A stretch of DNA of 64,000 bases, from the sequence record NC_054902.1. The stretch is one strand, 5' to 3'. Positions 43,381 to 45,836 of the stretch are shown piece by piece. Within the stretch, counting starts at the first letter, position 1; every line of letters begins with the position of its first letter. The notes below the pieces were generated by a model. The model saw nothing but the letters and a program-made list of their open reading frames with translations. It searched no databases and had not been told where the DNA came from. The stretch comes from Enterobacteria phage Aplg8. The translations under genes were made by a program, and so were the position numbers.

Positions 43381-43689
43381 TTATTTACCAATAAATTGAA
43401 GCAAATGCTCAACTTTCATGCCATTAACGGAAATCAATTTGTCAATAGAAAAACCTCGCCATGCACCGAGTTCAACATCAAATATCGGAATCATATCAGT
43501 AGATTCTTTCCGAGTAGATTCAGTCAATTTACCGGTTTGCATAGTTGGCATAAAGTCACCATCACGGGTGCCTTTCATAGTACGAATAGTACCATCAGAC
43601 TTTTCAAAAACCACGTTTGAAATACCCATGGACAATTTAGTTTTCAAAATTTCACGAATTGCTACTTTCTGTTCAGTTGTCAGTTTCAT
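43381..43689 (-). CDS. hypothetical protein
   Basis: 102-aa ORF. Confidence 0.6.
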   Translation of the reverse strand: MKLTTEQKVAIREILKTKLSMGISNVVFEKSDGTIRTMKGTRDGDFMPTMQTGKLTESTRKESTDMIPIFDVELGAWRGFSIDKLISVNGMKVEHLLQFIGK

Positions 43690-43926
43690 TTATTTACCTA
43701 TTACAGTTTTAATATGAGTTGTTCCACGTTCTTTAAGAGTGGAAAGCAACTTTTGGCATTTTTCTAAATCAGATTTCCAACTATACGGCCTATCAATACA
43801 AACCCATTCTGACTTATAATACTGTTTCCATTTAGAGAAAAAATATTTCTTATACTCTACAGCAAATGAGATGTTCTCATTAGAATAAGAACTAATTGCT
43901 GTGAGCTTTACCAAACGAAATTTCAT
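43690..43926 (-). CDS. hypothetical protein
   Basis: 78-aa ORF. Confidence 0.55.
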   Translation of the reverse strand: MKFRLVKLTAISSYSNENISFAVEYKKYFFSKWKQYYKSEWVCIDRPYSWKSDLEKCQKLLSTLKERGTTHIKTVIGK

Positions 43927-44507
43927 TATTCACCACAGAATTCGTTGATATTTTCCCAGTTTAACTTATTCAAGTTTTTCTTAGGAACATTAAACACTTC
44001 AATACCTGCATTTCGCAGAATATCATCCCAACCAGGTTTATTTTTATCGTATGTTTCACAATAAACTAGCTTTTTAATACCAGATTGAGCTATCGCTTTT
44101 GCGCAATCCGGACAAGGAGAAAGTGTTACATACATAGTAGCACCTTCAATAGAAGAACCATTTCGTGCAGCAAACAAAATTGCATTTAGTTCAGCATGAA
44201 TTTCATTTTTAGATGACCATTCCGAGTGAGCACTACGATGTTCTTTCGCCAAGACAAAACGATCAGTTGAACCAAACGATACACATTCAGGCTTATGACC
44301 TTGAATGATAGTATGTTTAGGTTTATTCAACAACCAACCTTGCTCAGCAGCATAATCACAGCAGTTCACACCACCAGCAGGTGAACCATTATATCCGGTA
44401 GAAATAATACGTCCATTCTTTTCAATTACTGCTCCTACTTTCCAGGAGCAACATTTTGATTCTTGTGATACTAAATATGCAATTTGAAGTACTGTACTCG
44501 CTTTCAT
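43926..44507 (-). CDS. cd: dCMP deaminase
   Basis: 193-aa ORF; cytidine/dCMP deaminase zinc motifs (HAE...PCPDC). Confidence 0.93.
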   Translation of the reverse strand: MKASTVLQIAYLVSQESKCCSWKVGAVIEKNGRIISTGYNGSPAGGVNCCDYAAEQGWLLNKPKHTIIQGHKPECVSFGSTDRFVLAKEHRSAHSEWSSKNEIHAELNAILFAARNGSSIEGATMYVTLSPCPDCAKAIAQSGIKKLVYCETYDKNKPGWDDILRNAGIEVFNVPKKNLNKLNWENINEFCGE

Positions 44508-44842
44508 TTCATAATCACCAGATAAGCAGATTTAGCAGTTTCAACACGATAAATTTCGTGACGAAGTTTAGTTATACTTTTAATAACAGAACTAATTATA
44601 TTCTGCCCATCTTTAAAGCGGTTTTTCTTATCAATAAAAACTGCGCCAGTCATCTTTTTGTGAAGCTCAACTGGATACTTCGTCACAATAATAGCATCAT
44701 ACACAGAAGGATGAATACTATTCACCAGAGTATCATTCATTAAAGTTATTCTAATGAACTTTGCTGTTTCAGAATCAAGCGCTCTATGATCGCCAGTATC
44801 ATTTTCAAGACAATTATCAATTATATCAGTTAAATTCATCAT
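44504..44842 (-). CDS. hypothetical protein
   Basis: 112-aa ORF; ATGA overlap with cd. Confidence 0.6.
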   Translation of the reverse strand: MMNLTDIIDNCLENDTGDHRALDSETAKFIRITLMNDTLVNSIHPSVYDAIIVTKYPVELHKKMTGAVFIDKKNRFKDGQNIISSVIKSITKLRHEIYRVETAKSAYLVIMK

Positions 44843-45075
44843 AGTACGCCATACACCCTTTGTGCTTCAACTAATCCATCAAAATCCAATTTGAGATGTG
44901 TTATTTGGTCACCATCACCTGGATTCACAATTACTAATACTGAACGAGGAGTTTCGGTAATAACACGAACCGATGTTTCAGGAAATCGTTCAGAAACCTT
45001 ATTTACCAATTCCTGTGCAAATAGCTTAACTTTTTCTTGGAATTCTTTAACAGTAATTGGTTTTTCACTTAGCAT
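44839..45075 (-). CDS. hypothetical protein
   Basis: 78-aa ORF. Confidence 0.6.
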   Translation of the reverse strand: MLSEKPITVKEFQEKVKLFAQELVNKVSERFPETSVRVITETPRSVLVIVNPGDGDQITHLKLDFDGLVEAQRVYGVL

Positions 45076-45096
45076 TTTGTTTTCCTCATTTGTTTT

Positions 45097-45135
45097 GGTA
45101 GAGCTATAATATCACAACTCTACCGTAAAGTAAAC
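45097..45135 (-). promoter_or_regulatory. early promoter (GTTTAC-N18-TGaTATTAT) with -10 inside a 7-bp inverted repeat
   Basis: plus GGTAGAG ctataatatcacaa CTCTACC; minus-strand -35 at 45130-45135. Confidence 0.55.
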
Positions 45136-45137
45136 TG

Positions 45138-45413
45138 TTAAATTGCCTTGAATTCTGATGTCTGTGATTCAAAACGAATATCGCCTTTGATGACCAGCTC
45201 AGCATCAAGACCAAATACGACAATGATATGCGCAGAACCTGGATACAGCGTAATGGCAATAGAATCCACCTGGTCTGGAAGCAAAGTGTTCAATACATGA
45301 GTCACTTGAGCATGAATTCGAAGCTCGGCTGCGTTATCAAGCTTTTCAAACATATTATTAGCGATAATTTGGCTAAACACTACTTCTACGATTTTAGAAT
45401 AAGTCGGAAACAT
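45138..45413 (-). CDS. hypothetical protein
   Basis: 91-aa ORF. Confidence 0.6.
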   Translation of the reverse strand: MFPTYSKIVEVVFSQIIANNMFEKLDNAAELRIHAQVTHVLNTLLPDQVDSIAITLYPGSAHIIVVFGLDAELVIKGDIRFESQTSEFKAI

Positions 45414-45415
45414 AT

Positions 45416-45616
45416 TTACCTCACATAATTTTCTTCAAGCCAATCAATAACATCCAACGCATTATCAAAAGTTGAACCATCTACTTTATCTTCTGTTTCA
45501 TAATCAAGAACATCTAAGCCTACTCTTCCATCAACAATAGGCCATAAACAAAATAGATATTTCTTTTCTTTTTCAATTTTATCACAAAGTCGATAAATCT
45601 TTTCTATGTTATTCAT
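45416..45616 (-). CDS. hypothetical protein
   Basis: 66-aa ORF. Confidence 0.55.
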   Translation of the reverse strand: MNNIEKIYRLCDKIEKEKKYLFCLWPIVDGRVGLDVLDYETEDKVDGSTFDNALDVIDWLEENYVR

Positions 45617-45836
45617 AAGTTTTCCATGGTAAAGGCAGTTTAGTTTTCTTTACTGTTAGTTCAACACCAGGATTCTTTTCTCTTAATTTAAGGCATTCCT
45701 CCCAAGCTCTGATTTCACTAGTGAATACACAAAATTGCCCATTACTAGTACCAACTAAACCACTATTTACAATAACAATAGACCAAGTTTCATGATGCCA
45801 CGCCATTAAAAATCTCCAGAAGCAACTTGCCAGCAT
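45609..45836 (-). CDS. hypothetical protein
   Basis: 75-aa ORF overlapping the 3' end of pseT; start uncertain. Confidence 0.5.

Follow-up and report, generated by a model that had tools for sequence, protein, structure and literature searches.

The stretch of DNA considered here, 64,000 nucleotides (nt) from Enterobacteria phage Aplg8 (NC_054902.1; called the window below, at its full length), carries between gene 31 and pseT a dense block of seven small open reading frames (ORFs) that surround cd, the gene for dCMP deaminase. By order, strand and sequence identity these seven ORFs are identified as the orthologues of T4 31.1, 31.2, cd.1, cd.2, cd.3, cd.4 and cd.5. Taken as a whole, we think it probable that this is the T4 31-cd-pseT early block, made up of these orthologues, divided into two early transcription units, encoding small binding proteins, and bearing at its internal promoter an inverted repeat that would fold as a hairpin in read-through RNA. 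The seven genes and the promoter are already known, as the catalogued T4 31.1-cd.5 region.

Over 42900-46800 the DNA shares 97-98% identity with hundreds of Tequatroviruses of Escherichia and Shigella, and the window is a Tequatrovirus (T4-like) genome. Between about 33 kb and 62 kb all genes lie on the minus strand, in agreement with the GC (guanine-cytosine) skew. The T4 reference (NC_000866) has the order rIII, 31, 31.1, 31.2, cd, cd.1, cd.2, an early promoter, cd.3, cd.4, cd.5, pseT, pseT.1-3, alc and rnlA, and between gene 31 and pseT, around cd, this gene order and strand are reproduced in the window. Order, strand and the neighbours 31, cd and pseT are thus common to the window and T4 (T4p215-T4p222; UniProt P17308, P17307, P32287 and P39498-P39501). 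The genes, with lengths in amino acids (aa), are as follows.

43381..43689, minus strand: 31.1, a WYL_2 / Sm-like SH3 beta-barrel protein; 102 aa, 97% identity to T4 31.1
43690..43926, minus strand: 31.2, isoelectric point (pI) 9.7, without a Pfam family; 78 aa, 97% identity to T4 31.2
43926..44507, minus strand: cd, dCMP deaminase, the conserved anchor gene (Pfam dCMP_cyt_deam_1); 193 aa, 99.5% identity to T4 Cd
44504..44842, minus strand: cd.1; 112 aa, 99% identity to T4 Cd.1
44839..45075, minus strand: cd.2, DUF7320; 78 aa, 87% identity to T4 Cd.2
45138..45413, minus strand: cd.3, DUF7355; 91 aa, 99% identity to T4 Cd.3
45416..45616, minus strand: cd.4, acidic (pI 4.35), without a Pfam family; 66 aa, 97% identity to T4 Cd.4
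45609..45836, minus strand: cd.5, Pfam T4_Y13H; 75 aa as the longest ORF, 92% identity to T4 Cd.5

A preliminary description of this DNA had reported seven ORFs of 66-112 aa around cd, with high gene density and tiny intergenic gaps. All seven are present there on the minus strand, and the block is indeed dense, with overlapping or abutting junctions. It had also called the ORFs unannotatable and the locus a new candidate; neither holds, each ORF being a named T4 gene in an annotated T4 region. The junction spacings within the block are -8, +2, -4, -4, -1 and 0 nt, and there are two larger gaps, of 62 nt between cd.3 and cd.2 and of 56 nt ahead of gene 31. The gene overlaps suggest translational coupling at most junctions.

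The 62-nt gap holds the internal promoter, which reads GTTTAC-TTTACGGTAGAGTT-GTGATATTAT on the coding strand and matches the T4 early-promoter consensus GTTTAC(N14)gtggTAttaT quoted in the record of phage SA21RB. It has GTTTAC at -35 (45135-45130), a spacer of about 17-18 nt and an extended -10 of the form TGnTAnnnT, whose TG lies at 45114-45113 and whose hexamer TATTAT spans 45111-45106. Where 0.12 matches to GTTTAC-N14-15-TGnTAnnnT would be expected in the window there are seven, all of them on the minus strand and each shortly after an upstream gene. The -35 element is invariant in eight phages from several genera. In the T4 record, early promoter Pe133295 is marked in the interval from cd.3 to cd.2, and the SA21RB record has an annotation at this site too. 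The window matches Pe133295 letter for letter from the -35 to the end of the hairpin, and in position as well; nothing material differs. The inverted-repeat promoter that had been proposed at 45097-45135 is therefore real, by the motif count and by the T4 and SA21RB annotation, and the inverted repeat is found as well. The control elements in and next to the block are these.

45106..45135, minus strand: T4-type sigma-70 early promoter, GTTTAC-N14-GTGATATTAT, homologue of T4 Pe133295
48412..48441, minus strand: next early promoter upstream, before alc, by motif match; there is no other match between 45135 and 48412
43355..43379, minus strand: MotA-box middle-promoter-like site upstream of gene 31, at the downstream edge of the block, TGCTTTAAGAATTATTTGTTATTAT; SA21RB has an annotated middle promoter at this position

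The MotA-box motif is not enriched in the window, and the assignment at 43355-43379 is one of position only. The positions of the early promoters, together with the gene overlaps, point to two co-directional polycistronic early units: the promoter ahead of alc (48441) would drive alc, pseT, cd.5, cd.4 and cd.3, and the one at 45135-45106 would drive cd.2, cd.1, cd, 31.2 and 31.1. Two of the early promoters of the window, at 33132-33161 and 48412-48441 on the minus strand and 15 kb apart, are near-identical over 30 nt (GTTTACAAGTCCCTCGTGTTGTGTTA[T/C]AGT).

All seven ORFs are genuine protein-coding genes under purifying selection. Their median ratios of nonsynonymous to synonymous substitution rates (dN/dS) against relatives lie between 0.016 (cd.3) and 0.23 (31.1), with 31.2 at 0.11; gene 31 and pseT stand at 0.125. 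Each of the seven matches a PHROG family (31.2 PHROG 2010, cd.4 PHROG 2360, for instance), every one of these families being of unknown function. Published T4 data show the orthologues to be transcribed early, translated, and dispensable on laboratory E. coli. All seven are classed as early RNA (PMC9697503, supplements 4 and 6), and mass spectrometry detected each of the seven proteins: cd.2 as early, 31.1, cd.1, cd.3 and cd.4 as middle, and 31.2 and cd.5 as late, so that cd.2, the first gene after the promoter, is the sole early protein among them (PMC9697503). In a genome-wide CRISPRi-ART knock-down of T4, the seven genes and cd were scored 'Not Fit' and gene 31 'Fit' (PMC11879866, supplement 15). 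Literature searches by gene name returned no functional study of any of the seven.

As to what the products do, 31.1 is the best defined. It matches Pfam PF10902 (WYL_2) with 70.5 bits, against a cut-off of 26.7, over positions 2-74 of the 74 in the profile; WYL_2 is the former DUF2693, which Makarova et al. (2014, PMC4012209) assigned to the WYL superfamily, a group of Sm-like SH3 barrels that bind ligands. F28, K30 and R78 are invariant among its relatives, and R36, T41, D71 and F80 nearly so; K30, R78 and R36 are basic and might line a putative ligand pocket. The keeping of conserved basic residues, and the Cys that many relatives have before a TRD motif, fit the pattern described for the WYL superfamily; 31.1 differs in standing alone, as a phage protein of about 100 aa that has neither a helix-turn-helix nor an effector domain. 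No fusions were seen, all 119 of the homologues found carrying PF10902 alone. In marine T4-like phages, distant homologues have small ORFs around them and gp32 and gp33 nearby, and these neighbours are uninformative. 31.1 probably binds nucleic acid or a small ligand. In many phage records, homologues of 31.1 and of 31.2 are labelled 'tail fiber(s) protein', as is PHROG 10657; nothing supports the label, and it looks like a propagated annotation error, 31.1 being a WYL_2 domain that is expressed early.

Three other products are assigned to functionally uncharacterised Pfam families: cd.2 is DUF7320, cd.3 is DUF7355 (PF24051, 1e-32) and cd.5 is T4_Y13H. The absence of known domains claimed in the preliminary description is thus wrong for these and for 31.1, and stands for 31.2, cd.1 and cd.4, which have no direct Pfam hit; among cd.1 relatives, however, 10 of 25 match DUF6957 through a conserved C-terminal motif, RFxDGxxIxTSxVxS...VxTxNSxYLV. 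The predicted structure of cd.1 has a low-confidence helical N-terminus and a conserved small C-terminal beta domain, and that of cd.2 a single long helix packed on a four-stranded antiparallel sheet. Such predicted structures are generic small folds that would point to no particular function. Sequence and profile searches of the Protein Data Bank (PDB) with all seven gave nothing significant, NCBIfam and PADLOC gave zero hits, and a BFVD search with cd.2 returned only T4-like DUF7320 proteins. Small size, the lack of catalytic motifs and the generic small folds suggest that the products may be small single-domain binding proteins rather than enzymes, which would most likely work by stoichiometric action on macromolecules of the host or the phage, as host-takeover or niche factors useful under certain conditions.

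Some leads were discarded. A likeness of cd.2 to DinI, a RecA modulator, comes from a weak Pfam match over helix and strand (14.4 bits, against a cut-off of 24.2; E 0.048) and from the label 'din1-like' on a Klebsiella phage cd.2 homologue in GenBank; DinI is matched by only 3 of 25 relatives, at best with E 0.012, and the predicted structure does not have the DinI fold, so that structure prediction rejects the lead. The cd.1 profile matched PDB entry 9okl_B, 'CS-2', a silkmoth kinetochore subunit, at E 0.1, a chance match. Paralogy of cd.2 and cd.3 was given a probability of 3% by hhalign.

Variation of the block was followed across 76 loci, made up of 13 GenBank phages from several genera and 63 loci from IMG/VR, with cd as the anchor. 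The anchor genes hardly vary (cd in 76, pseT in 71, gene 31 in 69), and the small genes form a gradient: 31.1 is present in 72, cd.2 in 58, cd.1 in 54, cd.3 in 49, 31.2 in 29, cd.4 in 23 and cd.5 in 18. This division into conserved (31.1, cd.2, cd.1, cd.3) and variable members (31.2, cd.4, cd.5) is modestly new. In T2 and T6 both cd.4 and cd.5 are lost between cd.3 and pseT, with only an 18% remnant of cd.4, and they are thus dispensable in natural relatives.

Other genes occupy the same places. In many close relatives, among them T6, Hafnia phage IsaacDaniel (2889-3416 of the locus extract) and UPEC07 (4010-4552 of the extract), and in the Gapriverviruses, a further ORF of 175 aa separates the early promoter from cd.2, at about 45075 in window terms; it lies directly behind the same promoter and hairpin and would be driven by them. 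It is missing from the window, T4, T2 and SA21RB. That this ORF might be a homing endonuclease was considered and dropped, Pfam and NCBIfam giving no match. In the cd.1 slot, Mizar (3512-4504 of the extract) and Klebsiella phage KLB31 (4624-5619) carry a DAHP synthase, of the aromatic amino-acid pathway, and Acinetobacter phage Meroveus carries a NudE-like ADP-ribose pyrophosphatase in the cd.1-cd.5 slot (4824-5351 of the extract). A 100-aa ORF at 46711-47013 on the minus strand, in the gap between pseT and pseT.1 (PHROG 2364, 'RB32ORF217c-like'), is found in T2, T6, SA21RB and others, with T4 lacking it, and adds one more presence/absence difference to the early unit from alc to cd.3.

The region is therefore plastic, but its most conserved members behave like near-core genes. 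The preliminary description had proposed a second candidate accessory locus, in the sense in which phage 'accessory regions' are clusters of genes that vary, set between core genes (Silas et al., 10.1101/2023.04.06.535777). That proposal is borne out as far as plastic content and dispensability in T4 go, and fails for 31.1, present in 72 of the 76 loci, and for the widespread cd.2 and cd.1. The likeness to such regions lies in variable, non-essential small genes between conserved 31, cd and pseT; the difference is that 31.1, cd.2 and cd.1 are broadly conserved and slowly evolving, and that there is no known counter-defence phenotype.

The same layout, which suits the published accessory-region concept (10.1101/2023.04.06.535777), raises the idea that the block is a dedicated counter-defence island, with each small protein inhibiting a particular bacterial immune system. 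The variation in gene content between conserved anchors is what such an island would show, as are early expression and dispensability in the laboratory host, and comparable T4 ORFs, uncharacterised until then, namely 30.3/adfN (a few kb off in the same early region), tk.4/adfM and nrdC.1, were assigned anti-defence roles by a T4 transposon screen that covered several defence systems and clinical isolates (10.1101/2025.11.20.689424). The main text of that screen, however, names none of the seven. They also show no likeness to known defence or anti-defence proteins in PADLOC, NCBIfam, PDB and fold searches, their dN/dS is low, and the conservation of 31.1, cd.2 and cd.1 is too wide for arms-race genes, which turn over fast. 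We regard a dedicated island as unlikely.

In the window itself, the 154-aa ORF at 40115-40579 on the minus strand, which follows a 278-aa 30.2-like ORF (39282-40118), is by position a putative orthologue of 30.3. T4 30.3 is reported in a 2025 preprint to be adfN, an anti-DarTG1 factor (10.1101/2025.11.20.689424), so that, on this positional assignment only, the early region that contains the block would also contain a proven counter-defence gene, some 3 kb downstream.

The remaining element of the block is the inverted repeat that lies over the internal promoter.

45097..45124, minus strand: inverted repeat / 12-bp hairpin over the spacer, -10 and start region, with arms 45124-45113 and 45108-45097

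Folded as minus-sense RNA it gives a 12-bp stem (-16.3 kcal/mol, z -6.1), and as plus-sense RNA a stem of only 7 bp (-9.1 kcal/mol), because three of the stem pairs are G-U. Pairing is maintained in 96.9% of cells across 11 distinct sequences from three clades; two pairs are fully compensatory (A-U to G-C and G-C to A-U) and three have one-sided changes that keep the pairing, while sliding the 3' partner by 1-3 columns as a control drops the paired fraction to 33-65%. Since transcription would start about 7 nt after the -10, the transcript of this promoter should lack the 5' arm, and the hairpin could form only in read-through RNA arriving from cd.3. There it may mark or stabilise the 3' end of the upstream unit at the point where the next promoter fires. 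Most likely, then, the inverted repeat acts in RNA, as a 3'-end or stability element of the upstream unit laid over the next promoter.

The arrangement recurs. At 41698-41726 and 57520-57549, both on the minus strand, early promoters also carry an inverted repeat with the 5' arm in the spacer and the 3' arm over or after the -10, giving the hairpins GGTACAGGATATGATATTATATACCTGTACC (-19 kcal/mol) and GGCTATGGTAGTGATACTATAGCC (-17.3), respectively. The 30.8/30.7 promoter hairpin is kept in Gaprivervirus with an A-U to U-A swap, and in a Jiaodavirus a different, longer hairpin takes its place. A U-tract is missing at all three promoter hairpins. A recurrent, covarying hairpin over the -10 at three of the seven early promoters is a modestly new point. 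Sequestration of the cd.2 Shine-Dalgarno by CUUUA/UGAGG pairing in read-through RNA was also considered; it appears in Tequatrovirus minimum-energy folds and not in other clades, and was set aside.

Several points weigh against our account of the block and its hairpin. At 45097-45124 there is no U-tract 3' of the stem, the next sequence being AAAACAAAUGAGG, so that it is not a canonical intrinsic terminator; a terminator scan did not report it. The covariation stems from essentially two clades, its compensatory changes essentially from one, and so represents few independent events, and the -10 element inside the hairpin constrains the sequence independently of pairing. The operon boundaries are read off promoter motifs and gene spacing, the binding mode of action is deduced from an absence of evidence, and no function has been demonstrated for any of the seven.

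The main alternative to an RNA hairpin is that the inverted repeat is a DNA element, either a symmetric operator at which a dimeric regulator tunes or shuts the promoter, or a cruciform. It overlaps the spacer, the -10 and the start site, which is where a repressor would act, and the layout at three of the seven early promoters fits this too, as does the fact that the spacer of Gapriverviruses holds, at this place, another short palindrome (CACCATGGATGGTG). The stem itself argues the other way: with its three G-U pairs it reaches 12 bp in the mRNA sense and no more than 7 bp when read the other way or taken as palindromic DNA, and its arms vary by compensatory substitution rather than keeping a recognition sequence. 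Nor was any candidate regulator found, and we consider a DNA element distinctly unlikely.

More speculatively, 31.1, the one near-universal member and a stand-alone WYL_2 barrel that most T4-like phages would make early, might serve as a decoy or sponge for the nucleic-acid or small-molecule signal of WYL-domain defence regulators, or, more broadly, at least one of the seven might be an immune inhibitor; separately, the hairpin might be a device coupling the 3' end of an early transcript to the next start. We rate these ideas as very unlikely.

It could also be asked whether the small proteins are accessory subunits or regulators of dCMP deaminase, in the dNTP (deoxynucleoside triphosphate)-synthesis complex, or of PseT, in RNA repair. 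Co-transcription and translational coupling with cd and pseT would suit this, 31.1 always adjoins cd or 31.2 and gene 31, and other genera have metabolic genes (DAHP synthase, NudE) in the cd.1 slot. But knock-down of cd and of the small genes had no measurable cost, so that there is no supporting phenotype, cd is kept where cd.1, cd.3, cd.4, cd.5 and 31.2 are missing, and the distant WYL_2 homologues near gp32 and gp33 are in unrelated neighbourhoods. A role of this kind is highly improbable. As for the ORFs being, some or all of them, non-functional chance ORFs or decaying remnants, as their small size (65-112 aa), the three without a Pfam family and the deletion of cd.4 and cd.5 in T2 and T6 might hint, this is already refuted by the dN/dS of all seven and by the detection of protein for each T4 orthologue, every ORF having its PHROG family besides, and it has practically no chance of being right.

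By itself the finding matters little, since what has been rediscovered is a set of catalogued T4 genes of unknown function and an annotated promoter. Its value is one of tidying: conserved and variable members are told apart, the likely cd.5 start (below) is corrected, and the DinI lead and the 'tail fiber' label of 31.1 and 31.2 are removed; the cd.5 start and the discarding of DinI are modestly new as well. It also flags the conserved hairpin-over-promoter layout, which could be tested cheaply. Should one of the proteins turn out to counter a host defence, the list of T4 anti-immunity genes, already growing, would gain a member.

Elsewhere in the window, an Rfam search of the whole stretch gave no hits, and so no group I intron was found. 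An nrdB-like ORF (50060-51238, 392 aa) and a td-like ORF (54787-55647, 286 aa), both assigned by size and position only, run uninterrupted; unlike T4, the phage seems to be without an nrdB intron, and probably also without that of td.

Two start sites within the block deserve comment. The true start of cd.5 is probably the ATG at 45806, which would give a protein of 65 aa. The match to Pfam PF25744 (T4_Y13H; 5e-32) begins at residue 12, and the Pfam and PHROG profiles align only from M11; the ten-residue N-terminal extension of the longest ORF is missing in more distant relatives, where the start is the internal Met. A GGAG Shine-Dalgarno lies 9 nt ahead of the ATG at 45806, and the ATG overlaps the stop codon of pseT (TAATG); it is on these grounds that we favour it. 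In the case of cd.2, the window, T2, T6 and SA21RB agree, and the T4 reference differs from them by one additional G (AAAGGAATTC; T4 about 6240-6262 of the extract; window 45040-45075). This puts the ATG out of frame, so that the T4 annotation begins cd.2 at an internal GTG and gives it another N-terminus, and it accounts for the lower identity (87%) of cd.2 to its T4 counterpart. Either T4 truly has a frameshift here, or the G is an old error of sequencing. The window has the intact, ATG-initiated form, as against the GTG-annotated form of T4, and its ribosome-binding site, read from the sequence, is as follows.

45084..45087, minus strand: cd.2 Shine-Dalgarno GAGG, 8 nt ahead of the ATG, invariant in eight phages

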